Assembly (NCBI GenBank): GCA_963789955.1
Contig: CAWBMV010000037.1
Span: 160,001 to 224,000, forward strand
Direction of reading: 5' to 3'
DNA: 64,000 nucleotides
From: an uncultured Candidatus Rokubacteria bacterium
GTDB taxonomy: Bacteria; Methylomirabilota; Methylomirabilia; Rokubacteriales; CSP1-6
Shown: piece by piece, positions 27,588-43,341 of the stretch
How positions within the stretch are numbered: position 1 is the first letter of the stretch
Layout of the letters: every line of letters starts with the position of its first letter
The notes under the pieces: model-generated
What the model saw: only the letters and a program-made list of their open reading frames with translations
Database searches by the model: none
Told to the model about the DNA's origin: nothing
Made by a program: the position numbers and the translations under genes

Positions 27588-28684
27588 TTGCACTTTTCCG
27601 ACACGCGTCTGGCGGCCGTCTGGGACAAGGTCCGCGACGGCGGGCGCCTGAGCCGTGAGGACGGCCTCTTGCTATTCGAGACCGAGGATCTGCTGGGCCT
27701 CGGACGCATGGCCGACCACGTCAAGACCGCGCGCGAGGGCGACCGCGCCTATTTCGTCCTCAACCGGTACATCTCGCCGACCAACATCTGCGTGCTCTCG
27801 TGCGCCTTCTGCGGCTTCGCCCGAAAGAAGGGCGAAGACGGCGCGTTCGAGTACACGGTCGAGGACATCGTCGGCATGGTCAGCGAGGAGGTTCGCGAGG
27901 TCCACATCGTCGGCGGCCACCATCCGGACTGGCCGTTCGAGTACTACGAGCGGATCATCGGCGGCCTCCACGCGGCGCGTCCCTGGGTGCAGATCAAGGC
28001 CTTCACCGCCGCCGAGATCGATTACTTCTGGCGGCGCTGGAAGGTCGAGCCGGTGGAAGCGCTCACGCGGCTGAAGGCCGCCGGGTTGCAGACGATGCCG
28101 GGCGGCGGCGCCGAGATCTTCTCGTCGCGCGTGAGCAAGCTCTTGCGCTATGCGGGCAAGGCCGACGGCGACCGCTGGTGCGAGATCCACGGGATCGCCC
28201 ACTCGCTCGGGATCCGCACCAACGCCACCATGCTCTACGGCCACGTGGAGACCCACGCCGAGCGGGTCGATCACCTGATCCGCCTGCGCGAGCAGCAGGA
28301 CCGCTCCGGCGGCTTCCTCACCTTCATCGCCCTGCCCTATCAGGTCGGGACGACGACGCTCGTGCCGCGCTCGACGCCGCCGGCCGACAACTTGCGCACG
28401 ATCGCGGCCGCGCGTCTGCTGCTCGACAATTTTCCGCACATCGAGGCGTACTGGGTGCTGCTCGGCGAGGAGACGGCGTCGATCGCGCTGCACTTCGGCG
28501 CCGACGACGTGAACGGCACGCTCGAGGACGAGCGCGTGCAGCACATGGCGGGCGCCGAGACGCCGGCCGGCCTCGCGCGCGAGCAGCTCTTCCGGATCAT
28601 CCGCGATGCGGGCAAGGTGCCGGTCGAGCGCGACGCGCTGTACAACGTGATCCGCGTCTGGGATCGCGAGGGGTGGCGGCCTAG
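27588..28684 (+). CDS. mqnE: Aminofutalosine synthase (radical SAM)
   Basis: PTNICVLSCAFCGF, EVHIVGG, MPGGGAEIF, TNATMLYGHVET; appears fused to mqnC, probably through an indel. Confidence 0.85.
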
Positions 28685-28688
28685 CCCG

Positions 28689-29762
28689 ATGCTCGAGACT
28701 ATTCGGGACAAGGTTCTCGACGCTAAGCGGCTCGATCGCGCTGAAGGTCGCTGGCTCCTCGCCGAGGCGCCGCTGCTCGCGCTGGGCGCCCTCGCCGCCG
28801 AGGCCCGCTACGCGCGCTTCCCCGAGAAGGTCGTCACGTTCGTGATCGACTCGAATCCCAACTACACGAACGTCTGCATCACCGACTGCCAGTTCTGCGC
28901 CTTCTACCGCAAGCCGGGCGATCCCGAGGCCTACACCCTGACGGTCGAGGAGGTGCTGGCCAAGATCGAGTTCGCGGCGTCCAAGGGCGCCACGACCGTG
29001 CTGCTGCAGGGCGGTCACAACCCGGCGCTGCCCCTCGACTACTACACGACGATCGTGCGCGAGACGCGGCGCCGGTTCCCCGAGGTCACGCCGCACTTCT
29101 TCACCGCCTCGGAGATCCGCACGGTCGCGCAGGTGGAGAAGATCTCGGTCGGTGACGTCCTCGATCGCCTCTGGGAAGCCGGGCAGCGGACACTGCCGGG
29201 CGGCGGCGCCGAGGTGCTGTCAGAGCGCGTACGCCGGCGGATCGAGCCCAAGAAGGGCGGACCGGAAACCTGGCTCGAGGTGCACCGCGAGGCCCATCGC
29301 CGCGGCTTCAAGTCGACGGCGACGATGATGTACGGCCACGTCGAGGAGGTCGACGACCTCCTCGAGCACCTGGACGTGATCCGCGAGCTCCAGGACGCGT
29401 TCGGCGGCTTCACGGCCTTCGTGCCGTGGTCCTTCAAGCCCAACAACACCCTGCTCGAGAAGTGGATCAAGCATCCGAAGGGTCCGAACATGTACCTGCG
29501 CATGCTCGCGGTCTCGCGCCTCTATCTCGACAATTTCCCTCACGTCCAGGCCTCGTGGTTCTCGGAAGGCAAGCGCACCGGCCAGATCGCGCTCCACTTC
29601 GGCGCCGACGACTGGGGCGGCACCTTGCTCGAAGAGAACGTGCACAAGGCCGCGGCGTTCGTGAACACGATCGGCGTCGACGAGATCGTCACGTTGATCC
29701 GCGACGCCGGCTTCACCCCCGCCCAGCGCACGACCGAGTACGAGATCCTGAAGCGTTACTGA
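28689..29762 (+). CDS. mqnC: Cyclic dehypoxanthinyl futalosine synthase (radical SAM)
   Basis: NYTNVCITDCQFCAFYR, LLQGGHNP, STATMMYGH, HVQASW, GGTLLEENV. Confidence 0.9.
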   Translation: MLETIRDKVLDAKRLDRAEGRWLLAEAPLLALGALAAEARYARFPEKVVTFVIDSNPNYTNVCITDCQFCAFYRKPGDPEAYTLTVEEVLAKIEFAASKGATTVLLQGGHNPALPLDYYTTIVRETRRRFPEVTPHFFTASEIRTVAQVEKISVGDVLDRLWEAGQRTLPGGGAEVLSERVRRRIEPKKGGPETWLEVHREAHRRGFKSTATMMYGHVEEVDDLLEHLDVIRELQDAFGGFTAFVPWSFKPNNTLLEKWIKHPKGPNMYLRMLAVSRLYLDNFPHVQASWFSEGKRTGQIALHFGADDWGGTLLEENVHKAAAFVNTIGVDEIVTLIRDAGFTPAQRTTEYEILKRY

Positions 29763-32336: not shown

Positions 32337-33233
32337 CTATCCGGGTAGCGCGATGTTGCCGTCGGGCTCTCGGACGTTGCCGTCGGGCTCTCGGCTTCGG
32401 ATCGCGGTGACGCTGCGGCCCTCCGTGTCCTTGACGTCGAACTCCTCGGCGAGGCCGGCCGCGATCAGCTGCTGCACGAGCGCTTCGCGGTCGGTGCCGA
32501 CCGGCGGCAGCTGGTGAGACTTCCAGCGCATGACGAAGTAGCCGCGGCTCACGTGCGGCAGGCGCGCCTCGGCGCGCTGCAGCTCCTGAAGCGCGCGCTC
32601 GAGCGCCACGCCGGTCACCGGCTGCGCCGTCGGACGCGCCAGACGCGAGGGCGCCATGCGGGTCGGGGCGCGCTCGAACGGTCGCGGCCGCTCGACCTTG
32701 AACGCCGGGATGCCCTCACTCAGATGGATCTGGCCGAAACAGCGCACGCGCAGATCCTTGGACAGCTCTTCGGCCGACCACGTCGCCACCCAGACCTGCT
32801 TGCCGAGCGCGTTGACCGCCTCGACCGCCGGCACGAAGTCGTCGTCGCCCGAGACGAGCACCGCCGCATCGAACGCGCCGATCGCCGCGTACTGGATGAT
32901 GTCGGCGACGAGCCGCGTGTCCACGCGCTTTTCGGTGGTGTACTCGTAGTCAGCGCTGCACGCCGGACAGCGTCCGGAGCGGCGCACGCGCAGCTCGCGC
33001 TTGACGAAGTAGCCGGGGCGCAGCTCGAGGCCCTTGAGGAAGCCTTCGACCAGCGGCGGCGCATCGGACGACACGCCGACGTAGTAGTGCGCGCCGGCGA
33101 AGATCGCGCCGGGTCCGCCGGCGGCCTGGGTGATCCAGGCGGCGAGTCGATCGTAGTCGACACGCAGCGATTCGTCGTAGCGTTGAAGAGACCGGTAGAA
33201 GTTCTGACCGTCAAAGAAAACGCTGACCTTCAT
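32337..33233 (-). CDS. NYN (PIN-like) domain protein
   Basis: VFFDGQNF, EKRVDTRL, LVSGDDDFVPAV. Confidence 0.9.
   Translation of the reverse strand: MKVSVFFDGQNFYRSLQRYDESLRVDYDRLAAWITQAAGGPGAIFAGAHYYVGVSSDAPPLVEGFLKGLELRPGYFVKRELRVRRSGRCPACSADYEYTTEKRVDTRLVADIIQYAAIGAFDAAVLVSGDDDFVPAVEAVNALGKQVWVATWSAEELSKDLRVRCFGQIHLSEGIPAFKVERPRPFERAPTRMAPSRLARPTAQPVTGVALERALQELQRAEARLPHVSRGYFVMRWKSHQLPPVGTDREALVQQLIAAGLAEEFDVKDTEGRSVTAIRSREPDGNVREPDGNIALPG
32355..32394. repeat. 21-bp tandem duplication inside the NYN C-terminus (REPDGN x2)
   Basis: gttgccgtcgggctctcgg at 32355 and 32376. Confidence 0.75.
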
Positions 33234-33283: not shown

Positions 33284-33360
33284 TGGTGGACGATACTGGA
33301 TTTGAACCAGTGACCTCTGGCATGTGAGGCCAGCGCTCTAACCAACTGAGCTAATCGTCC
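33284..33360 (-). tRNA. tRNA-Val (anticodon CAC)
   Basis: GGACGATTAGCTCAGTTGGTTAGAGCGCTGGCCTCACATGCCAGAGGTCACTGGTTCAAATCCAGTATCGTCCACCA folds as a cloverleaf, with encoded CCA. Confidence 0.97.
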
Positions 33361-33369
33361 GTGGCGGGG

Positions 33370-33398
33370 ACGTTAACCACTTACAGACACGGTTGCAA
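33370..33398 (-). promoter_or_regulatory. Sigma70-type promoter for tRNA-Val
   Basis: Minus strand TTGCAA-N17-TAACGT, about 9 nt upstream of the tRNA 5' end. Confidence 0.7.
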
Positions 33399-33412
33399 GA
33401 GCTTCCTGCTCG

Positions 33413-33432
33413 TGTCACCAAGTTTGTAACTA
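33413..33432. other. Putative integrase arm-type binding sites (left)
   Basis: TGTCACCA-N4-TGTAACTA, mirrored by TGTCACCA-N4-TGTAACCA at 40096-40115. Confidence 0.65.
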
Positions 33433-34575
33433 GCGGGCCGCCGGTCCTAGCCCATGATGGGCCACCCCTTGCGGCGTCGCGTCACCAGCCAGCTTGAGCG
33501 CGGCCGCGCGAAGGTCCGCGGGCGACACGATCGCGTAGCGCCGGTAGACGTTCTCCGTCTTATGGCCGGTCAGTTTCATCGCGACGGAGCGCGGCACTGC
33601 GGCCTGCTCCATGTTCCGCACCGCAGTACGCCGCAGATCGTGGCGCAGCATCCCGGGATTCCCTGATTTCCGGCACGCCGTCGCCCATGTTCTCCGGAAA
33701 TCACGCCGTGGCTGGCCTGTAAAGCGCCCTGACGGGTGCGGGAACAGCGCGGGAATGATCCGCTCGAGTTGGCGCTCTAAGGTTTTTACGCGGGCCACCT
33801 GTTCCGTCAGCAGCAGTTTCAGGTCCGGGGTGAGCACCACCACGCGGCCCTCGCCGTTCTTCGTCTGGCCCGGGTCCAGCGCCAGCGTGCCGGCGTCGAG
33901 GTTCAGCTGGCGCTGCTCGAGGGCGAGCACTTCGGACTGCATCCGCCAGCCGTAGACGTAGGAAATCGTGACGGCCACTTGCAGATCCGGCGAGAGCCGG
34001 CGCCGCACGGCCGCAAACGCCTCGGGCTCGAAGAATCCCTGACGCGGCGCCGACTCCTCGAGCTTGCGGAGCATGGGCAGTCGCGCGAGCCGGTTGTGCT
34101 CATACGCCAGCTTCAGCATCCGACCGAGCACCGCGAGCTCGCGGTTGATGCTCCCGTTGCTGGCCCCCTGCCCTTGCCGTTTCAGCGCGTAGGCTTCGCT
34201 GTCGCGCGTGCCAATCGACGCCAGGCGCCGACTCTTGAAGTAGTGGTCGAGGTGCGCGAGCCGATAGCCCGCTTCGGTCAGGTCGCGGGCGCCGGTCACG
34301 GTGTAGTGGTCGCGCAGCGCCTTCGCCGCGTCGTCGTAGGTCACACGATCCAGGCGCGGCATCACCGGCTCGCCCTTGTCGATCTTCACGAGCCGCTCGC
34401 GGAGAATCTTCCGCGCGGCGGGCTCGTGCGTCGTGCCGGTGCTTTCATAGAACGCGCGGCCGTTCTGGTGGTACTTGATCCACCACGTTTCGCCGCGCTG
34501 GTAGAGCATGCCGCTCCCCGGCTTCGCACGGGGTTTCTTCGTCTCGGTCGTCGTCGGGGTCGCCGTCTCGCTCAT
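33430..34575 (-). CDS. int: Tyrosine recombinase / phage-type integrase
   Basis: YGWR (catalytic R), TKNG (K), HDLRR (HxxR), GHKT (H), YRRY (Y); N-terminal LYQRGETWWIKY arm-binding domain. Confidence 0.95.
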   Translation of the reverse strand: MSETATPTTTETKKPRAKPGSGMLYQRGETWWIKYHQNGRAFYESTGTTHEPAARKILRERLVKIDKGEPVMPRLDRVTYDDAAKALRDHYTVTGARDLTEAGYRLAHLDHYFKSRRLASIGTRDSEAYALKRQGQGASNGSINRELAVLGRMLKLAYEHNRLARLPMLRKLEESAPRQGFFEPEAFAAVRRRLSPDLQVAVTISYVYGWRMQSEVLALEQRQLNLDAGTLALDPGQTKNGEGRVVVLTPDLKLLLTEQVARVKTLERQLERIIPALFPHPSGRFTGQPRRDFRRTWATACRKSGNPGMLRHDLRRTAVRNMEQAAVPRSVAMKLTGHKTENVYRRYAIVSPADLRAAALKLAGDATPQGVAHHGLGPAAR

Positions 34576-34602
34576 GTGTCGCCCCCTCCTCGTGAGGCAA
34601 GG

Positions 34603-34634
34603 GCATTGTATACCGATCGGTATACAATGGTCAA
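34603..34634 (-). promoter_or_regulatory. Integrase promoter overlapped by a perfect 26-bp palindrome (putative operator)
   Basis: TTGACC-N18-TACAAT on the minus strand; CATTGTATACCGATCGGTATACAATG at 34604-34629. Confidence 0.75.
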
Positions 34635-34650
34635 AGGGCGCGCGCGTGGG

Positions 34651-34992
34651 TCACGGCGTCACGTCCTCGAGCTTGGTCCAGCCGGCCACGAGGGCACCCT
34701 CGAGCCGTTCGGCGGGCTCGGCGCCCGTGCGGATCTCAACGGCCACCGGATAGACACCAGGCGGTCTGGGCGACGGCCACGCCCGTAGCCGCATCCCGGC
34801 CACGCCCGCCTCGCCGGAGCCGTCCTCGAACTCCAGCACGTAGCCGTGGGGCGGCAGCATCGGCAAGTCGAGCAGGCGCGCGGCCTCCACGACGTGCGCG
34901 GCGCCGTTCGTCTTGACGGTGAAGCGCCGGATGACGAGCGCGCTAATCAAGTGCGCTCGGCACTCCTCGAGCGTCTCCGACGTGTCGATCAT
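34651..34992 (-). CDS. Hypothetical protein
   Basis: 113-aa ORF co-oriented within the element. Confidence 0.6.
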   Translation of the reverse strand: MIDTSETLEECRAHLISALVIRRFTVKTNGAAHVVEAARLLDLPMLPPHGYVLEFEDGSGEAGVAGMRLRAWPSPRPPGVYPVAVEIRTGAEPAERLEGALVAGWTKLEDVTP

Positions 34993-35016
34993 GCGACTCT
35001 GACTCGAGTTTCAATC

Positions 35017-35403
35017 TCACGGAAACTCTGGTCCCCAGGAATTCCGGCCCCACACGTCTTCGGCGGCCCGCCGCCGCTCGTCGTCCAGTCGGCGTTCCGT
35101 CGCGAGACGCTGATACTCGGCGTATTCTTTGGAGCCGCCGAGGTACACGCACCGGCAGTTATCGGGATCGGCGTAGGTGTACTGCACCGTCCCGTCCTTG
35201 GTGCGGCTCACCAGCCGGTAGGGCGGCCCCGCGTCCAGAGGCTTCGTGTCGGCGGCGTCGACAAGTTGTTTCTTGAACCCGGCCGCCGTCAACAATTCCT
35301 CGGTGTCGCGCGCCTGCAACCCGCGGATCGTCGCGCAGCCTGTGAGAAGCACCATTGCCGCGATAGTCAATCGCGCGATGTTCGTAACCGAGCGTCTCTC
35401 CAA
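35017..35403 (-). CDS. Putative lipoprotein
   Basis: GGAGG RBS + TTG; lipobox LLTGC; LTAAGF, YADPDNCRCVYLG motif. Confidence 0.7.
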   Translation of the reverse strand: MERRSVTNIARLTIAAMVLLTGCATIRGLQARDTEELLTAAGFKKQLVDAADTKPLDAGPPYRLVSRTKDGTVQYTYADPDNCRCVYLGGSKEYAEYQRLATERRLDDERRRAAEDVWGRNSWGPEFP

Positions 35404-35550
35404 TATCCTCGTCCTCCGTTGCGCAGTGTGCTGCGCCGACAAGACGAGCAGGCTGTCAATCGACCTAACGCCTACTGTTTGGCGACCCGACTGTCAATCT
35501 TCAACTTTTCATCACTCAGGGGGCGCGCCGCGAGCCGTTCGCCGGGGCGT

Positions 35551-35676
35551 TCACATGCCGTCCGTCGCGCCGCAGCGGGGGCACCTTTCCTCATGCACGA
35601 GAAAGACTCCGGCGCAGCGCGGACAGGTCCAAAGCCGCGGCGGCACCCAGTTCCACGGCGACGGCGCGGCGTTCAT
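35551..35676 (-). CDS. Small zinc-ribbon protein (41 aa)
   Basis: MNAAPSPWNWVPPRLWTCPRC...CPRCG; ATG overlaps the upstream stop. Confidence 0.55.
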   Translation of the reverse strand: MNAAPSPWNWVPPRLWTCPRCAGVFLVHEERCPRCGATDGM

Positions 35677-36708
35677 TGCAACGGTCTCGTCGCGGCCTGG
35701 AGATAGCCCTCGACCTGCGCGCGCCGCTGATCGATCCGGTCGAGCTCCGCGGCGAGGGTCGCCGTCGCGTCGCCCGCGCGCTCGGCGGCCTCGAATTCGT
35801 CCGCCACGCGGGCGCGGCGTTCGGCAAGACGAGCGAGCTGACGCTGGGCCTCGGTAATGCGCCCCTCGCGACTCTGGCGCTCGCGGCGCTGCGCTTGCTC
35901 GGCCCGGGCCTCCCGCATCGGCTGCTGACCGGCCACGTGCGCGAAATCGAGGCCGCATGGCGACGTCGGCGCTCTGGTTCACGAACGGCAGGATGGCGTC
36001 GTGATCTTCGGGCGAGTGGCGCTTGAGCCGCGAGAGGTAGGTGTTGATCGTCTTGATGTTGCTCGCGGCCTGCGCGCCCCACAGGGTGTCGAAGTCGAGC
36101 GTGGTTTCTCCGCCGAGCGTCAGATCCACGGCGCCGGTCATCTGCGCCGTCTGGAGCACGGCGTTGAACTCGGCGCCCTGCCACGGGGTCAGCCCCATCG
36201 CCTGCACCGCGGATTTATAGCGGTCGCGCTCCGGCTGCATCCAGTGTTTCGGCAGCACACCATCGAGGTCTTTCTCACTGAAGGTTTCCGTGATCGACGG
36301 CGGGCGCGGGAGTGGCCCCGGCCGCGCGGCGGCTTCCTGGGCTTCGCGGAGTCGGATCGCTTGATCGAGGTTCTGTGCGTCGTCCGGTGTGATCGTGCCG
36401 TCGCGCCAGCCCTCGGCGTCGGCCATCATCGCCTTGTATTGCTCCTTGAGGTCTTTCACGCTCGGCCCCTCGGGCAGTGACACCGGCACGCGGGCAGGCT
36501 GGGCGTGGGCCCGCATCTCGAGCGCCCACACCTGCTCGCACGCCGGCACATGGTTCGGTCGCCACGAGTGGTGAAAGTCGTGGTCGGGGTTGCTCCTGAT
36601 GGCCTGGAGCTGGGCGCGCGCCGCTTCGGGCGTGAGGCGCTCCGCGGCGTGCACCACGTCAGGGCTCAAGTTCAGGGCGGCGGTGGTGGAGATCGGCGTC
36701 TCGTCCAT
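35673..36708 (-). CDS. Hypothetical protein, phage scaffolding-like with coiled-coil C-terminus (frameshift near 35950)
   Basis: GGAGG RBS; LTPEAARAQLQAIRSNPDHDF, MGLTPWQG, LWGAQAASNI motifs; heptad C-terminus. Confidence 0.55.
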
Positions 36709-36719
36709 GGGGTCCTCCG

Positions 36720-36998
36720 TTAGTCGAAGCACGTGGCCAGTCTGCTTCCATGGCCCGACGTGGGCACGGTGGCGCTGCTGCCGAAGACGGTCGGCAAGAT
36801 GCCTTGCGCCCTCGGCGCCGCGCGTCGCGAGCCGGCCCACCAGGCGAAATGGTCGGGCGTGAGCACGTCGGGGAGTTCGACGAACTCGACGCGGGATTCG
36901 CGCTCGGCTTGCTTGATCGCGCGGATTTGCGCGGCCTTCGCCTCGGCGTCGGCGGTCGGCCTGGTCGACGTCGCGACGCGCGCGCGTTTCTTGTTCAT
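36720..36998 (-). CDS. Hypothetical protein
   Basis: 92-aa ORF translationally coupled to the upstream gene. Confidence 0.55.
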   Translation of the reverse strand: MNKKRARVATSTRPTADAEAKAAQIRAIKQAERESRVEFVELPDVLTPDHFAWWAGSRRAAPRAQGILPTVFGSSATVPTSGHGSRLATCFD

Positions 36999-37444
36999 GC
37001 CAACGCCTTCTCAGCCGCATACCGCTGCGCGAGTCGCGCGCGCACCTCAGAATCCTCGCGCTTGGCGTCCGCGATCTTCGCCTGGATCTCGCTCAGCGCC
37101 TGCTCCAGCTCGGCGAGTTGACGCGCCAGACGCGCTTTCTGCTCGTCGTGCGCGCGCTGAGCGTCGGCGAGCGCCTGCTCGAGCCGCTGCGTCTGGCCGG
37201 CGATGTTCGCTTCGAACGAGGCCCAGTCGGACCGCGCGCGATTGATCTTCTCCTCGGACTGCTTGGCGCTGTGCTCGAGGTCATACGTCCAGTCAACCAG
37301 GTCGACCTCGAGCTCCCAACCGGCAAGCTTCCGCTTCGCTGGGCCGCTCTGCATGTGATCGCGGACCTCGGCCGCCGTCGCGGCGATCCGGGTGCGCGCT
37401 GCGGTGACCTCGGTGGTGGATGGAATTTTAAAGGGCTCGGTCAT
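36995..37444 (-). CDS. Coiled-coil hypothetical protein
   Basis: AAGGAGGT RBS; long A/E/Q/L/R heptad C-terminus. Confidence 0.7.
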   Translation of the reverse strand: MTEPFKIPSTTEVTAARTRIAATAAEVRDHMQSGPAKRKLAGWELEVDLVDWTYDLEHSAKQSEEKINRARSDWASFEANIAGQTQRLEQALADAQRAHDEQKARLARQLAELEQALSEIQAKIADAKREDSEVRARLAQRYAAEKALA

Positions 37445-37509
37445 GACATTACCTCCTTGGGTCTTGGGATCACGCGCGTCGCGTCGATTCGGTTCGTGGT
37501 CGCCGACGC

Positions 37510-37698
37510 TCATACGCGCTCCCGCACGGTGTGGTCGTCGTGGCGGCGGCCTTCGACGTGGACGCGAGACTCGTCGCGCGGATCGTCCGCCACGATCCGA
37601 AACTGATCGTACGTGTTGTCACCGGCCGTGCGACGGGCCATCAGCTCGTCGACGTGTTGTTGGGCTTCTGGGAATGATCGAAAGGACTGCTTGCTCAT
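37510..37698 (-). CDS. Hypothetical protein (62 aa)
   Basis: AAGGAGG RBS before MSKQSFRSF. Confidence 0.6.
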   Translation of the reverse strand: MSKQSFRSFPEAQQHVDELMARRTAGDNTYDQFRIVADDPRDESRVHVEGRRHDDHTVRERV

Positions 37699-37700
37699 GG

Positions 37701-38062
37701 TCAATCCTCCTTCAAGGCTTCGTTCGCGTACATGAGATGCGAGAGCGGACACCACGCGAACCGCTGATGCGGGAACTGCCGACACGCGGCGGGCCGGTCC
37801 GGGTGGATGCCGCAGCGCTGGTCCGCGGTCAAAAAATCGCAGCCGGTCGGCGGGCGGACCCATCGCCACTCCACGCGCGAGCCGGGCAGACGATCCGCCG
37901 GCGGTCGATTCAGAAACTTCAGGCGTGCGCCGCGCTCGCGGCGCGCTGCTGCAGGCGTCGCAGCTCGGCGGTATCGACGGTGAGCATCACGTTGGCGTCG
38001 TGGCAGCACCGGCCCCGACACTCGCGGGAGCAGATCCGCAGCACCTCGGCGTCGGGAATCAT
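37701..38062 (-). CDS. YkgJ-family (CxxCxxCC) cysteine-cluster protein, frameshifted
   Basis: CSRECRGRCC ... CDFL...RCGIHPDRPAACRQFP. Confidence 0.75.
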
Positions 38063-38277
38063 GGTTCGAGGCTCGCGCCGACGATCTGCACGACCGCGAC
38101 CGAGCTGCTGCCGTCGCCTGTGTCGAACTCGACGATCTCGCCCACACGCGCATCGTGGCGGCGGACCAAGGTCCCCGGCTTCACCGCGTACTTCCCACCG
38201 CCGGCGAGGAATAATGCACGGACGCGGGCGTAGCACCCCGCGGGCACCAGCAGGTCGAAGACAGAGGTCGTTGTCAT
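38059..38277 (-). CDS. Hypothetical protein
   Basis: RBS and ATGA coupling on both sides. Confidence 0.55.
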   Translation of the reverse strand: MTTTSVFDLLVPAGCYARVRALFLAGGGKYAVKPGTLVRRHDARVGEIVEFDTGDGSSSVAVVQIVGASLEP

Positions 38278-38498
38278 GCGCGGCAATCTCCTTGCTCGGC
38301 GAAACAGTCCGCGAACGTTGACGCCGACCTCATTGAATCGGCCTCAGCACGGAAGCCGGCGCGCCTTTCCTCGTCGGCGGCCGCTCTCGCCTTCAGGAAA
38401 TCGCGATCGGCCGCGCTGAGTCCTCGTCGCCGGCGGCTCCCTGGCAGCACCCAGTTCCGCGCCGCGGTCCATCGAAACTCGGGACGTCGGCGCGCCAT
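38274..38498 (-). CDS. Hypothetical basic protein
   Basis: 74-aa Arg-rich ORF at the head of the coupled cluster. Confidence 0.45.
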   Translation of the reverse strand: MARRRPEFRWTAARNWVLPGSRRRRGLSAADRDFLKARAAADEERRAGFRAEADSMRSASTFADCFAEQGDCRA

Positions 38499-38599
38499 TA
38501 TGTGTGTGTTGATTTAATGCGCAGTACTTATCCGCGGCGCGGTTAGCCACTCAATCACGCAAACCCCAGCCATAAATCTACTGCGGCTAAAAGAGTTCA

Positions 38600-39615
38600 T
38601 CTCATCCAGCACGTTCACCGACTGGAGACGACGCCAATTCGGCCCGGCTTCTTGGAAATCGATCTGGTCGCCTGTGGCACGAGCACGCAGGGTTGTATGA
38701 TGTTTTATGTTGTTGAGAGAATAATAATGATGATGTAGGTTAAGTATGGTTATAATTAGAATGAGTTTAGTGGAGTATTTATTATGGAGATTGTAGTGAG
38801 ATAAGTGAAATTAGAGATGTTGTGATGGTATTAGAATTATTGAGATAGAAGTATTAGTTAGGATGATTGAGAATTGTGAGTTTAGATTAGGATATTGAGC
38901 AGTGTAGATAGAGGAGAGTTTAGAGTTAGATATTATAATTGAAACTTCAGTACGGCTCTGTACGCTCTGCGCAGATAGTGGACATGAAGGTCACATAGTG
39001 AGATAGACGGCGTGATCGATCGATTGCTGGATTGACGTCGGTCAAAGTGGGGTCAAGACGATCAAGAGCGGGTCTGGGTTTGAGCTGAGCGTACGTGCAT
39101 CGACTCGTGCGAGAGCGCTTGCCAGTAGGAGAGATGAATAGATGTAATTTGAGATGAGTTGTATGTATATAGGAAGAAGGAAGAAAAGGGTATGATGTAG
39201 GAGGAATTCGTGCTCGATGCGCGCGGCTGCCCGCTCGGATGCGGCTCGACCAAGTCGACAACGTTTTGCGGAGCAGTTCATCAAGCGCGCCACCTCTTGG
39301 CGAATAGTATGAGATAGAATGTGAATGTGGTTATGAATTAAGATGTGTAGAAGTATAATTAGGCAGAGTTAGGAGTTATGAGAGTAAGATGATATGATGG
39401 TGAGGGAGTATGTTGAAGGATGAGTATGATGAGTATTTAATGGAGTGATTTAAAGTGATTGATGTTTAAAGTGAATGAGTAAGAATGTTGAGTTGTTGTG
39501 TAATGGGGTTAGTGTGAATGTGATATGGTTAGGGAAGGTTGTTATGTGTAGATAGTTGTGAAAATAATCGGCACCGAGTGGATTGAACGTAGAATCCTCT
39601 TCTGACTCGACGCAT
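38600..39615 (+). pseudogene. Degenerate rve/DDE (ISNCY-like) transposase fragment interrupted by C-free tracts
   Basis: Ordered remnants TFTDW, PGFLEIDLVA-CGTSTQG, LCTLCA.VD, WG..QERV, VRERLP, LD.DN..EFI..HL. Confidence 0.65.
38689..39568 (+). other. Three cytosine-depleted A/G/T tracts (38689-38944, 39124-39208, 39302-39568)
   Basis: Direct count: 1, 0 and 1 C in 256, 85 and 267 nt. Confidence 0.95.
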
Positions 39616-39639
39616 CAAGTCGTTACTGTCGCGGCGACG

Positions 39640-40031
39640 TAGTTAACCCGAAGCGGAATTCTCGTCAGTAAGTGGCCGTCGACCTCTAAGTCGAGCCAAT
39701 AGAGGCCTTCTTCCTGCAGGATCGTTCGCACCTGTAAAGCGAGCGTGACCCATGCTCGTCCCCGTTAAGCTGGACTTCCCAGGAGTGGCAAGGCGAACCC
39801 TTGCTGCCCTGGGCGGATGAAGAAGAAATTCGAGGTGGTACGTTCCCTTAGCCGGTCCGGATTTCAGGCCTATCAGGGCCGTGAGTTCTACGGTTTGACC
39901 TTGCGCTTGCGGCGGTATTTTGACGGTGTCAATCACTCTGATCACGTTCAGAACGCCGTCCACCTCGTTCAAGACTTTCTCGCAAAACGTCGCAAGGGCG
40001 ACAAACGGGAGCGGACGCTAGGGTCTGGCAT
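39640..40031 (-). CDS. DUF6941-like hypothetical protein, frameshifted
   Basis: PFVALATFCEKVLNEVDGVLNVIRVID ... LKSG pattern. Confidence 0.55.
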
Positions 40032-40206
40032 TAGGCCCCCTCAACTTTGCTCTCCATCGTGCCTTGACGTTTTGCAAGCTGGCTCTCCCGCGTCCTGTCA
40101 CCAGCGTTGTAACCAAAGCCGCCACAAGATACCGCATTACCGCCCCCCGCCTATCGGTGTCACCGGAGAAAAGTGTGCGAGAAGTATGTGGACTCGTAAA
40201 AACAAA

Positions 40207-40266
40207 AGCGCCGGCCTCAGTCATGTGAGGCCAGCGCTCTAACCAACTGAGCTAATCGTCCGTGGC
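40207..40266 (-). repeat. att junction: displaced 5' half of tRNA-Val with a 13-bp inverted core repeat
   Basis: 40222-40266 equals 33321-33365; AGCGCCGGCCTCA-gtcatg-TGAGGCCAGCGCT. Confidence 0.88.
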
Positions 40267-40329
40267 CCGGAAGTTAAGCACTTGGAAGACACGTTTGCAA
40301 GAGCTTCCTCGCGACTGTCACCACGATTC

Positions 40330-40776
40330 TCGCCAGCGAGCTTGAATGCCCCCGCCTTAAGGTCTGCCGGCGACACGATCGCGTACCGGCGGTAGACGTT
40401 CTCGGTCCGGCGGCCGGTCAGTTTCATCGCCACCATCGCGGAACAGCGGCCCGCGCCATGTTTCTGACGGCCGTCCGCCTGAGATCGCAGCGCAGCATTC
40501 CGGCATTCCCCGATTTTTTGCAGGCCGTCGCCCATGCTCTCCGGAAATCCCGCCGGGGGTGCCCTGTAAAGCGCCCTGACAGGTGCGGGAACAGCGCGGG
40601 GATCGATTCAGCTTGAGCTCGCGCTCTAAGGTTTCGCCCGAGCCACCTGCTCCGTCAGCAGCAGCTGAGGTCCGACGTGAGGATCACCATGCGGCCCCCG
40701 CCGTTCTTCGTCTGGCCGGGGTCCAGGCTGAGCGTACCTGCCTCAAGGTTCAGCTGGCGCTGCTCGAGGGCCAGCA
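40330..40776 (-). pseudogene. Decayed tyrosine integrase (3' part), paralog of 33430-34575
   Basis: AMKLTGRRTENVYRRYAIVSPADL; DNA colinear with about 33490-33930; frameshifts; catalytic His replaced by Arg. Confidence 0.88.
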
Positions 40777-40862
40777 CCACGCTGCCTCGAAGAAGCCTTG
40801 ACGCAGCGCGCTCTCGTCGAGCTTACGCAGCACCGGCATCCGGGCCAGGGTCGCCGCACGCG

Positions 40863-41840
40863 CTACTCGATCAGCTGATCGGCGCGCCCGAGCATCGATG
40901 GGGGAATCGCCAACCCAAGCGCTTTCGCGGTCTTGACGTTGATCACCAATTCGGGACGCTCGTACGCCTCGACGGGCAGGTCAGCGGGCTTGGCGCCCTT
41001 GAGGATCTTGTCAACGTAACTCCCGGCCGCGACTCGACCAACCTCACGGATGTTCTCGGCGTAGGAGAACAGCGCGCCCTGCTCCACCCACTCGCGACGG
41101 TGGCCGGCCACCGGCAAATGCTGCTTTGTGGCGAGGCGAATGATCAGCGAGTGAAACTTCACGCGAAGGTTCAGTGAGGCGATGAAGACACCATCCGTGT
41201 TGCTCCGCGTTAGTGACTCGAAGATCTGTTCGAGTTCCTTCTGCGTTCGCGCGCTGCGCTCCATAGTCGTGATCTTCAACGCGGAGGCGGCCTGCCGCAC
41301 TGCACGCTTGAACTGCGGGACGCCCGGATCGTCCGGATCGACGAGGACGAGCATGCGATGAAGACCGGGAACGATCTCCTGGAAGAGCTGCACTTCCTTG
41401 AGCGGCGCGTTCCCGAGCGCCACGAAGCCGGTCATGTTACCGCCCGGATGGGCCAGACTTTTCACGACGCCGGCCGCGACAGGATCCGTGACATGAAGGA
41501 AGACGACCGGAATGTCCGTGATCGTTCCATGAGCAGCCCTGATCGTCTGGTTCTCGAACGCGACGACGAGGTCCGGCCGCGTGCGCGCGAATTCGGCGGC
41601 CGTGACGCGAGCGGCGGCCTCGTCGGGCAGGTTGCGGAAGTCGAGCCGGAGGTTCTTGCCTTCCTCGTAGCCCAGTGTCTTGAGTCCGTCGCGCAGACCG
41701 TCGAGTGACGGCGGCACATGATCGAGGCCCACGTGAAAGAGGGAGATTCGGTAGACCTTCCCCGCCTGCTGCGCCTCGGCGGCGAGTGGCGCGGCGAGCA
41801 GACCGACCAGCAGGGCGAACGTGAGCGATCTGCAGATCAT
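40863..41840 (-). CDS. PF04392-type ABC transporter substrate-binding protein
   Basis: Signal peptide AAPLAAEAQQAGKVYRI, SLAHPGGNMTG, YVDKILKGAKPADLPVE, VINVKTAKALGL. Confidence 0.9.
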   Translation of the reverse strand: MICRSLTFALLVGLLAAPLAAEAQQAGKVYRISLFHVGLDHVPPSLDGLRDGLKTLGYEEGKNLRLDFRNLPDEAAARVTAAEFARTRPDLVVAFENQTIRAAHGTITDIPVVFLHVTDPVAAGVVKSLAHPGGNMTGFVALGNAPLKEVQLFQEIVPGLHRMLVLVDPDDPGVPQFKRAVRQAASALKITTMERSARTQKELEQIFESLTRSNTDGVFIASLNLRVKFHSLIIRLATKQHLPVAGHRREWVEQGALFSYAENIREVGRVAAGSYVDKILKGAKPADLPVEAYERPELVINVKTAKALGLAIPPSMLGRADQLIE

Positions 41841-42050
41841 CGAGCGCTCTCCAGCTTCGTCAGGGCCGCGTGAAGCAGCGATTTCACGTCCTGAATCTGT
41901 GCCTGCCGCCTGTCGTCTCGACGCTGCCGGCGGCGCTTCGCCCGGCAGGCGCGGCGCACACGGTCTGCCGTCCCGAAGGGATACGCCGCACACCGAGCAG
42001 GGAGAGCCTATTAAAAGCCCGTCGGACAGCGTGCGCACGCTTTTTGGCGA
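41837..42050 (-). CDS. Small zinc-ribbon/coiled protein, frameshifted; start uncertain
   Basis: PCSVCG...RQTVC...CRAKRRRQ...LLHAALTKLESAR*; stop overlaps the ATG of the binding-protein gene. Confidence 0.45.
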
Positions 42051-42241
42051 GACTTGGCCGGCGGAGAGGAGCGTTCGCCCCCGTTCCGCGCCGCGGTCCG
42101 TCAGAAATTGCGAGCCGGCACGCCCTGCTCGACTACCATCTCCTACAGTGAAACACCTGATTGACAGCGCTGGTCGAGCGTAAAAGACTCGGAGAGTTGG
42201 TCTCAATCCAAGTCGAGTGGCGATAGAGGGAGGCGCTGCCG

Positions 42242-42535
42242 GTGGCGTCGAGCAGTCCGGCTAGGTATTCCTTCACTCACATATCGATCGTCCTGAACGC
42301 GCCGGAACAGTCGGGCGTCTATGCTCTGCACTATCAGACGTCGTGGGTCTACGTGGGCGAGAGCGCCAATATTCGCGCGCAGCTCCTGCAGCATCTCAAC
42401 GGGGACAACGCGTGCATCGCGGTGTATCCCCACCTGAGCTTCAGCTTTGAGATGATCCCCGAAGCGGTGCGCGCCTGGCGACAGGACGAGCTGATCAGGG
42501 AGTTTCGTCCGACTTGCAATCCCCGGCTGGGCTGA
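42242..42535 (+). CDS. Small GIY-YIG-like nuclease domain protein
   Basis: APEQSGVYAL...WVYVGES.NIRAQLLQH...ELI....P.CN. Confidence 0.7.
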   Translation: MASSSPARYSFTHISIVLNAPEQSGVYALHYQTSWVYVGESANIRAQLLQHLNGDNACIAVYPHLSFSFEMIPEAVRAWRQDELIREFRPTCNPRLG

Positions 42536-42737
42536 ATCCCACCCCGTCGATCTTGCCCGTGAGCCGGTGAAAATACACGTCCAGACCGTTCACGCTCACC
42601 ACCGAGAACAGCGGGCCCAGGTGCACGCGCACCTTCGCCCGGGTGTTCACGGCCTCGTACGACTGGTTGACGACGACACCAGGGATACCCAGCACGACTA
42701 GCAGCTTCCCCAACCACAGCCGAACCAGGGTCCGCAT
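42495..42737 (-). CDS. Hypothetical protein
   Basis: 80-aa ORF; no recognised motif. Confidence 0.45.
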   Translation of the reverse strand: MRTLVRLWLGKLLVVLGIPGVVVNQSYEAVNTRAKVRVHLGPLFSVVSVNGLDVYFHRLTGKIDGVGFSPAGDCKSDETP

Positions 42738-42907
42738 ATCACGCTCTTCTTCAAGAAGTTGGCCAAGCGCGGCCGGGCAATGGATTCCTGCGCTTACCGA
42801 TGCCGCCGCTCGTCAGTGTCGAGAAAGTGTGTAGAAACGACAGGGTCAGTGAACGCAACAAGTTCCCGGCGGAAAGGACGCCAGAAGCCGGGCACCGGTG
42901 ATTTAGG

Positions 42908-43294
42908 ATGCGGGCGATGGTGCGCGACCTCGTGATCGTGGCGGCGCTCGTGGTGCTCGCCGTGCTGCCGCCGGGCTCGGCCCAGGCCGCCGGGATCACG
43001 TCACTGCCGGCCACGCCGGTGACGGAGTGTCTGAAGCCGGAAGACACGACGTGGTCGTTCACCGCGAACTGGGATCCGATGATCGTGGACCAGAGGCCCT
43101 GGCCCACCTACGTCGTCGAGGCCAAGGGCTGTAGCAAAACGATTTTCGATTGTCGCGGCGCTCCCCACTGCAGCGCCGACATCACGTGCTCCGTGAGAGA
43201 AGGGAGAACGACCGTCTGGATCCAACCGTCCGGCATGGCCGGCAGCCGCGCCACGACCGGCGGAGCCTGGAAGCCGCGGGTGTGCAAGAACTAG
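42908..43294 (+). CDS. Secreted cysteine-rich hypothetical protein
   Basis: Signal peptide ending AQA; six Cys. Confidence 0.6.
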   Translation: MRAMVRDLVIVAALVVLAVLPPGSAQAAGITSLPATPVTECLKPEDTTWSFTANWDPMIVDQRPWPTYVVEAKGCSKTIFDCRGAPHCSADITCSVREGRTTVWIQPSGMAGSRATTGGAWKPRVCKN

Positions 43295-43306
43295 GTGCGC
43301 CCCGAA

Positions 43307-43341
43307 TATCACGAAATGACATGAGTTATCACGACGTGATA
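43307..43341. promoter_or_regulatory. Putative MarR operator pair
   Basis: Perfect TATCACG-A-CGTGATA at 43327-43341 and imperfect TATCACGAAATGACA at 43307-43321, just upstream of the marR-type gene. Confidence 0.65.

Follow-up and report, generated by a model that had tools for sequence, protein, structure and literature searches.

The window, by which we mean the whole 64,000-nucleotide stretch of DNA analysed here, contains a single tRNA gene, a minus-strand tRNA-Val(CAC) at 33284-33360, called by ARAGORN in the place where the earlier note had put it. An exact 45-bp repeat, made up of five upstream nucleotides followed by tRNA positions 1-40, is found at 33321-33365 and again at 40222-40266, and between the two copies lies a tyrosine integrase gene oriented toward the 5' end of the tRNA. 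The features around the two copies are the following.

32337-33233, minus strand: NYN-domain gene, host flank outside the element, downstream of the tRNA in many relatives
33284-33360, minus strand: intact tRNA-Val(CAC), with positions 1-40 on the repeat (element) side and positions 41-77 forming the host 3' half
33321-33365, minus strand: proximal 45-bp att repeat, the junction that rebuilds the tRNA gene
33370-33398, minus strand: candidate element-borne, sigma70-like tRNA promoter, TTGCAA-17-TAACGT, recognized by eye and below the scan threshold
33413-33431, minus strand: imperfect tandem AGTTACA-n5-GGTGACA, predicted arm-type sites of the integrase-side arm
33430-34575, minus strand: tyrosine integrase, 381 aa (PF00589, E 2.6e-10; phrog_1, E 1.4e-37)
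34604-34629: perfect 26-bp palindrome, candidate operator, overlapping the predicted integrase promoter
34605-34634, minus strand: predicted integrase promoter, TTGACC-18-TACAAT, 10/12 consensus matches
40096-40164, minus strand: second arm of predicted arm-type sites, GGTTACA-n5-GGTGACA at 40096-40114 and a single GGTGACA at 40158-40164
40198-40240, minus strand: predicted intrinsic terminator, a 15-pair hairpin at 40205-40240 and then a T run
40222-40266, minus strand: distal 45-bp att repeat, the displaced tRNA 5' half

The exact copy 6.9 kb away, already claimed in the earlier note, was reproduced and passed a shuffling control: a 22-mer derived from the repeat has two matches in the window at ≤3 mismatches, a number reached by none of 100 shuffles. 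The repeat terminates one base past the anticodon loop, and we infer that the crossover site lies within the 7-nt loop (33322-33328). The integrase is placed just upstream of the tRNA and transcribed toward it, as had been described. Its residues R211, K239, H312, R315, H338, and Y347 are all present and invariant in 20/20 aligned integrases, and it is not of the Xer or integron type (PF00589 scored above its cut-off, the XerC, XerA, and integron models far below theirs).

Four of the five GGTGACA copies in the window are found within 130 bp of an anticodon-loop copy. The candidate tRNA promoter sits where the tRNA-Val(CAC) of relatives has TTG-17-TAxxxT upstream, and it shares bases with a YAAS motif, at -58 relative to the anticodon, which presumably resembles an IHF site. 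At the far end, the terminator hairpin is formed by the displaced tRNA half paired with element sequence (-34.2 kcal/mol and z -5.5 for the 72-nt region). Terminators were called behind the displaced half in the window and in two loci of related integrases (L002, L065); the same hairpin can be seen by eye in L067, yet without a terminator call, and no terminator hairpin was found within the first 95 nt in L073, L225, or L080.

A search of public soil and rhizosphere sequencing runs gave 24, each sharing ≤11% of the window's words, of which four were compared, as contigs of other strains. In three of the four (X1, X2, and X4) the contigs join position 33320 to 40222, an exact skip of 6901 bases in which the 45 letters at the joint fit either side. 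The 6.9-kb block is thus a true insertion, and the precise rejoining at the 45-bp core is the empty site that the earlier note had wanted looked for. Given this exact empty site, the element replaces the 5' half of the tRNA and its upstream region, and the 5'-side geometry that had been claimed is supported by repeats and empty site alike. The circular attP junction was not found among the joints listed for the contigs of the four runs, which belong to other strains. Comparison of the NYN-tRNA-Val locus pointed the same way: among 30 tRNA-Val loci examined, four from genomes of the same genus (G094, G095, G097, and G098) lack an integrase within the 3-kb locus, with marR lying 0.4-0.6 kb upstream of the tRNA. 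The element cannot be told by its GC content, which at 0.674 is close to the 0.678 and 0.677 of the flanks.

We therefore hold with high confidence that a ca. 7-kb tyrosine-integrase element lies upstream of tRNA-Val(CAC), between identical copies of the 5' half of the gene, and that a circle carrying a promoter and a 5' half at its attachment site was its likely source, inserted by crossover in the anticodon loop. The attachment site of such a circle would read, in order, integrase end, tandem arm repeats, promoter, tRNA 5' half, anticodon loop, terminator, and arm repeats. Integration would place the promoter and 5' half of the element ahead of the host 3' half, so that the tRNA would be transcribed from the element, while the old promoter and 5' half would be shifted 6.9 kb upstream and the predicted terminator behind the displaced half would halt transcription into the element. 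The earlier note had spoken of a hybrid tRNA. This stands for the gene, in which an element-side 5' half is joined to a host 3' half, but not for its product: both 5' halves are identical and the mature tRNA is therefore unchanged, the part really swapped being the upstream promoter region.

The interior of the element consists of two parts.

34651-38498, minus strand: ca. 11 small co-oriented ORFs
38519-39568, plus strand: insertion-riddled internal piece (ca. 340 nt) of a DDE transposase gene from contig C1, with three cytosine-free stretches

The cargo includes a gene for a lipoprotein-like protein of 133 aa, copies of which occur at other places in two same-genus genomes with 93-96% identity. 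It also includes a 41-aa zinc ribbon, an all-helical protein of ca. 261 aa, coiled coils, and a CxxCxxCC protein with a frameshift. The cargo ORFs gave no sign of a primase, relaxase, or capsid. Nor did we find, among the ORFs scanned, the relaxase, coupling protein, or T4SS of an integrative mobilizable or conjugative element, or the capsid, terminase, portal, and tail genes of a prophage, for which there were only weak coiled-coil matches (E 0.004-0.04). The gene set of a phage satellite (PICI- or P4-like) was not found either, as the integrase alone was matched in Pfam, PHROGs, and NCBIfam, and the noisy join described below may hide genes. With replication, transfer, and capsid genes all undetected, the element most likely travels between cells as a helper-dependent satellite. 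The 261-aa protein had no family match and no relatives in 250 other genomes of the class or in viral contigs, and its structural model (pTM 0.37) gave no fold match at E ≤ 0.001; a reading as a T7-type capsid scaffold had a sub-threshold atlas score (0.82, low recognition) and was left as a weak lead.

The element is 6901 bp long in the assembly, within the 2-200 kb range of Islander-type islands, with its exact length uncertain. The cytosine-free tract at 38.5-39.6 kb is most likely unpolished long-read noise, and as the middle of the element thus looks like raw-read noise, its exact size and content are uncertain, and its continuity and length rest on one imperfect assembly. It is a real possibility, if the lesser one, that the geometry is right but that the interval is mis-joined by a noisy read, linking ends that belong either to one longer element or to two related elements of strains that occur together; genes such as a primase or a regulator would then be missing from the assembly. 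Region 38519-39301 aligns to the C1 transposase with 309 matches and four mismatches, but also with 70 inserted nucleotides spread over 30 events and, in addition, three long insertions free of C. The tract is the sole region below 45% GC in 6.8 Mb, it is spanned by no listed contig piece, depth is zero over 38523-39156 in all four runs, and a frameshift close to the end sets the 261-aa ORF apart from a database protein to which it is otherwise identical. Against such a mis-join, the same pair of arm repeats is found at both ends of the element, and both ends are continuous with the correct flanks, in the order NYN, tRNA, marR seen in relatives. In any case, a mis-join would alter size and cargo and leave the geometry unaffected.

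It is improbable that the C-free stretches are real DNA, for example untemplated repair insertions or the melting region of an origin. The five C-free runs (44-211 nt) have no equivalent elsewhere in the genome, but they interrupt a transposase piece that is nearly free of substitutions and rich in short insertions, homopolymer pairs are depleted (GG 0.55, AA 0.68), phages and plasmids gave no match, and the C-free parts were unmatched in 250 other genomes of the class. Among related loci L001-L082 there was one other C-free run of at least 40 nt (45 nt, in L041). Two further ideas were discarded: the tract is stop-rich in every plus-strand frame, unlike a coding or conserved feature, and a simple C-to-T conversion does not fit a sequence inserted into, rather than aligned with, the transposase and containing 34% A. 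Caution is in order with long-read metagenome assemblies, where a striking anomaly of composition may be no more than noise from the reads.

Beyond the distal repeat the similarity between the two ends continues far past 45 bp, into the promoter region and ca. 520 bp of a second integrase (76-85% nucleotide identity, in pieces).

40271-40322, minus strand: displaced promoter-like region, TTGCAA-18-TAACTT (by eye), and one GGTGACA of the older element
40330-40850, minus strand: decayed integrase of the same family, reduced to residues 163-183 and 214-365, with several frameshifts and without the N-terminal part
40863-43316, strand not assigned: ABC substrate-binding gene, GIY-YIG-like ORF, and others, a stretch that four same-genus genomes lack between tRNA and marR

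An origin of the two ends other than site-specific integration, through tandem duplication of an integrase-promoter-tRNA segment or its homologous recombination, could explain the ca. 600 bp of similarity beyond the core common to both ends, but it is very improbable, as identity is confined to the 45-bp core while the integrase copies are only 76-85% alike, the empty allele rejoins precisely at the core, and loci with other cargo and other tRNAs break at the same loop. We prefer site-specific integration into a locus probably already occupied. The empty-site contigs, too, have the decayed integrase upstream of their intact tRNA, and because a decayed integrase of the same family precedes the displaced 5' half, we read the arrangement as a probable tandem array. 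Its inner member has an integrase and a tRNA fragment, and its outer member a decayed integrase, with no third tRNA half found. A search for a third 5' half gave nothing in the window (≤3 mismatches) or in the genome (blastn-short). The source of the displaced 5' half is most likely an older family member rather than the original host locus, which would mean that the array grows at its tRNA-proximal end; 40863-43316 is likely the remainder of the older island.

How this geometry compares with that of related integrases was examined at 152 integrase loci, of which 51 were kept (at least 45% identity and a tRNA ≤260 nt from the integrase end). These comprise 36 same-strand loci of 5' layout, on 12 isotypes, and 15 convergent loci of 3' layout, on 10 isotypes; the relatives with a 3' layout include L080, L189, L231, L232, L247, and L255. 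A broader set (33-100% identity, n = 74) gave 26 same-strand, 28 convergent, and 20 unlabelled loci. Of 18 same-strand loci extended to ≤21 kb, four (L002, L065, L067, and L073) have a displaced 5' half that ends at the anticodon loop; one was also seen in L225. None was found in the other 14, several of which reach the contig end, and most 5' labels thus rest on orientation only. By these labels, assigned mostly by orientation, the 5' layout is the commoner one within the close relatives of the integrase. A 3' tRNA fragment was also looked for at a convergent integrase paralogue of the same genome (contig C16) and was not found. Contig C34 gave a second tRNA-Val(CAC) call, a structure of 102 nt with poor pairing that is probably false.

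The two layouts have much in common. A tandem 7-mer with a period of 11-13 was found in 31/36 loci of 5' layout and 13/15 of 3' layout (controls 4/36 and 0/15), a strict test that the imperfect arm pair of the window itself fails. YAAS at -62 to -50 occurs in 31/36 and 9/15, respectively (controls 3 and 1). What differs is the promoter, TTG-17-xAxxxT between integrase and tRNA being present at 23/47 same-strand and 0/43 convergent loci. The integrase phylogeny that the earlier note had proposed was built within the integrase's own family, and 5' and 3' types interleave on it, with eight label changes over 50 rows, at least five of them forced by branches with ≥95% support; a single clade for the 3' type was rejected (p-AU 2.8e-8). 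Both integrase trees are quick trees with near-duplicates included.

The spacing from arm repeats to anticodon is similar whichever half is carried, and the 5' layout is therefore likely the same recombination complex re-targeted to an oppositely read tRNA, with a promoter added. On balance, and by a narrow measure, we favor the idea that the family is ambidextrous, keeping one attachment-site layout while repeatedly changing which half it carries, 5' or 3', even on the same tRNA, with a promoter and often a terminator in the 5' form, and that it is a widespread, uncharacterised family of Rokubacteria-like soil bacteria and Nitrospira. The layout kept would be the tandem arm repeats ca. 108 nt and YAAS ca. 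58 nt from the anticodon; flips would have taken place on Val-CAC, Arg-CCT, Arg-TCT, Asp, Met, and Val-TAC; and in the 5' form the promoter would be written over the same spacer, often with a terminator behind the half-gene. As the loop is at almost equal distance in both tRNA halves, a switch would need the capture of new host sequence and no new enzyme. Published work on this integrase family or on orientation switching was not found in a search that covered papers outside subscription.

Among known systems, the Islander database catalogues 125 tandems and a 5' tDNA fragment class of 159/3919 islands, or 4% (Hudson, Lau, Williams, PMC4383910). Islands of this class resemble the present element in their onboard tyrosine integrase, anticodon-centred site, upstream 5' fragment in the same orientation, and size of 2-200 kb (PMC4383910), and the element is a clean example of this already known class. 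The account of the class in that paper is one of counts, with nothing found there on promoters, terminators, or the integrase clades using the 5' layout (PMC4383910). An element recombining with the 5' region of a tRNA gene, called much less frequent, had been described before (Zhao and Williams 2002, J Bacteriol 184:859, per PMC6563490); judging by its title and the citing passage, this reverse-orientation element likewise uses the tRNA 5' region (PMC6563490). The geometry had been presented in the earlier note as the rarer one, which holds overall at 4% (in the account of PMC4383910), but it is known, catalogued, and commoner among the close integrase relatives.

Mycobacteriophage attP cores are 30-45 bp long (PMC10865867). 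With standard 3'-restoring tRNA islands and prophages, as outlined there, the element shares a tyrosine integrase, arm-type sites around the core, and one junction that rebuilds the tRNA (PMC10865867). The difference is that the half it brings is the 5' one, and that a promoter has to come with it. There is a parallel in tRNA-dependent lysogeny, where host tRNA expression is likewise reliant on element DNA, but those phages, as described, bring a whole separate tRNA and do not rebuild the gene, whereas here the gene is rebuilt in place and no whole tRNA is carried (PMC10865867).

The comparison within the family offers a possible reason for the existence of the 5' layout, and as it supplies natural matched pairs, one integrase of 5' type and one of 3' type for the same tRNA, the rule of target orientation becomes testable. 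Island finders that scan only downstream of tRNAs would miss many such elements. For these soil bacteria, the comparison would also mean that mobile-element DNA repeatedly replaces their tRNA promoters.

The only tRNA in the window, found with ARAGORN, overlaps one copy of an exact 45-bp repeat and is adjoined by an integrase gene, so that the repeat at tRNA-Val and the neighboring integrase claimed in the earlier note are borne out. The features are:

33284-33360, minus strand: tRNA-Val(CAC)
33321-33365: 45-bp repeat, tRNA copy
33430-34575: tyrosine integrase ORF, matching family profiles
40222-40266: 45-bp repeat, distal copy (displaced half)
40330-40850: decayed integrase (residues 163-183 and 214-365, several frameshifts, N-terminus missing)

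The repeat consists of five upstream bases plus tRNA positions 1-40, ending one base beyond the anticodon loop. A 22-mer taken from it occurs twice in the window, and twice in none of 100 shuffles. The integrase carries all six catalytic residues, invariant across 20 aligned sequences. The NYN protein adjoining the tRNA shares 96% identity with its counterpart in a Ca. Rokubacteria assembly, which makes a soil bacterium of Rokubacteria type the probable host.

Twenty-four public runs contain part of the stretch (each at most 11%), and we examined four soil or rhizosphere runs (X1-X4) for joints. In contigs of X1, X2, and X4, position 33320 runs straight on to 40222: 6901 bases are absent, and 45 letters at the joint fit either side; the X3 contigs had no such joint. 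The empty site rejoins at the 5′-half repeat, which supports the earlier suggestion that the element entered the tRNA from its 5′ side. The earlier note would have been refuted if relatives showed the block as fixed core sequence. Of 30 tRNA-Val loci compared, those of four same-genus genomes lack an integrase, with marR lying 0.4-0.6 kb upstream of tRNA-Val, and in locus L002 another island, of 8.5 kb, separates this tRNA from a displaced 5′ half. With the empty site in contigs and empty or alternative loci in relatives, the fixed-core alternative therefore fails and the block is an insertion. Loci L038/L002 and L039 have extra DNA between tRNA-Val(CAC) and the NYN gene, including a degenerate copy of the tRNA's 3′ part, a sign of 3′-type insertions downstream at the same gene.

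The distal repeat is followed by a close duplicate of the promoter region and then by the decayed integrase. The empty-site contigs retain 40222-40662 and the sequence from 40850 on, and in them the decayed integrase stands before the intact tRNA; it is therefore older than the element. No third 5′ half was found in the window or the whole genome, so the displaced half is likely also element-derived and the original host half gone. The interval 40863-43316 is probably the remainder of the older island. The element, which lies in tandem with an older relic, is a further case of a known minority class, the 5′-fragment islands. Islander counts a 5′ fragment in 159 of 3919 islands, and 125 tandems (PMC4383910), and PMC6563490 calls recombination with the tRNA 5′ part considerably less frequent (citing Zhao and Williams, 2002). 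PMC10865867 describes the standard 3′ layout and an alternative strategy, carriage of a whole tRNA, which differs from the layout seen here.

The heptamer GGTGACA occurs five times in the window, equal to chance overall (mean 4.8), but four copies are no more than 130 bp from a copy of the anticodon loop. In the young element, each arm has GTTACA followed by GGTGACA with a 12-bp period. Lambda-type integrases use arm-type sites, and by analogy we read these pairs as predicted arm-type sites. Nine nt before the tRNA is TTGCAA-17-TAACGT, which keeps register with the pattern that precedes the same tRNA in relatives; it was not among the calls of the promoter scan. The displaced half is followed immediately by a 15-pair hairpin with a T run, called as a terminator (z -5.5). 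A different, conserved hairpin occupies the equivalent place in L002 and L065, where a terminator was also called, and in L067, where it is visible by eye and the scan made no call; in L073, L225, and L080 no such hairpin was seen in the first 95 nt. A perfect 26-bp palindrome (34604-34629) that spans the integrase promoter's predicted -10 box is a candidate operator; no repressor gene was recognized in the element.

Five cytosine-free runs of 44-211 nt lie at 38689-39568 and are unmatched elsewhere in the 6.8-Mb genome. What flanks and separates these runs is an internal stretch of a DDE transposase from contig C1; its alignment has 309 matches against 4 mismatches, with 70 inserted bases over 30 events. 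Uncorrected single-molecule reads typically show many insertions and almost no substitutions. The tract is very probably an assembly artefact of raw long-read noise, and 38519-39568 may be a mis-join. The length and middle of the element are uncertain owing to this tract; its geometry is unaffected, because both ends match the flanks and have common arm repeats. Elsewhere, a 724-aa ORF (27588-29762) resembles two radical-SAM menaquinone genes in one frame, parts that we take to be MqnE-like and MqnC-like, and reflects either a genuine fusion or an indel error. Frameshifts are also suspected in several further ORFs of the window.

The element has some 11 small ORFs, all co-oriented, among which profile scans found no primase, relaxase, or virion families. 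For a 261-aa protein the database holds four further relatives (54-85% identity); the protein's resemblance to T7-type scaffolds was sub-threshold only, and a fold search gave it no backing. Spread as a helper-dependent satellite appears most likely. A 133-aa lipoprotein-like gene (34984-35510) recurs as 96%-identical DNA at other loci of two same-genus genomes (G100, G108), and therefore moves independently of the element.

Relatives of the integrase are present in 75 of 251 class genomes. We gathered 30 of the matching genome loci, 40 further matches picked for near-full length, 80 metagenome loci, and 78 from viral collections. When labels were given by any tRNA lying no more than 400 nt from the integrase end, a broad genome set of 74 proteins gave 26 same-strand (5′ layout), 28 convergent (3′ layout), and 20 without tRNA; on a quick tree these labels require 13 changes, at least 7 of them forced. 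Of 152 loci from genomes and metagenomes, 51 passed a stricter filter (45% identity, tRNA within 260 nt), 36 being same-strand and 15 convergent; these include the window's own locus and two pairs of identical entries. On a 50-row tree the labels require 8 changes, at least 5 forced, and a single clade for the 3′ type was rejected (quick tree, simple model). Of 18 same-strand loci that were extended, 4 have their orientation confirmed by a displaced 5′ half, as does L225, and a displaced 3′ half confirms it in L080, L189, L231, L232, L247, and L255; all these fragments end or begin near the anticodon loop. Measured from integrase residue 364, the anticodon lay at a median of 106 nt in 36 same-strand loci vs. 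117 nt in 14 convergent ones. A tandem 7-mer plus a YAAS motif near -58 stood well above controls in both groups alike; in the window itself the 7-mer pair is imperfect and did not pass the strict test. A promoter-like pattern was found in 23 of 47 same-strand loci and 0 of 43 convergent loci.

Some individual loci deserve mention. The source genome has a 51%-identical integrase paralogue (G000:C16:11049-12243) convergent with tRNA-Met, so the same genome contains both layouts; a displaced 3′ half of this paralogue was not found. It also holds a tandem 3′-type array (G000:C36 9009-19402), in which tRNA-Ser(TGA) is accompanied by two 3′ fragments, both displaced, and by a distant relative of the integrase (33%). 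In L080 (G228:C60) a tRNA-Arg(CCT) is targeted from both sides, with two displaced 3′ halves downstream and one 5′ half 0.8 kb upstream. L065 (5177-5571) has three consecutive tRNA-Pro(GGG) 5′ fragments inside 0.4 kb; the two shorter ones extend to position 27 and are set in repeated units.

The simplest reading is that the family has repeatedly switched target orientation while keeping its recombination layout constant, a claim resting partly on orientation labels and quick trees; the tree is unrooted, and therefore assigns no direction to the change. This switching of orientation with conserved spacing is, in our view, the most interesting part of the finding, and it is open to testing.
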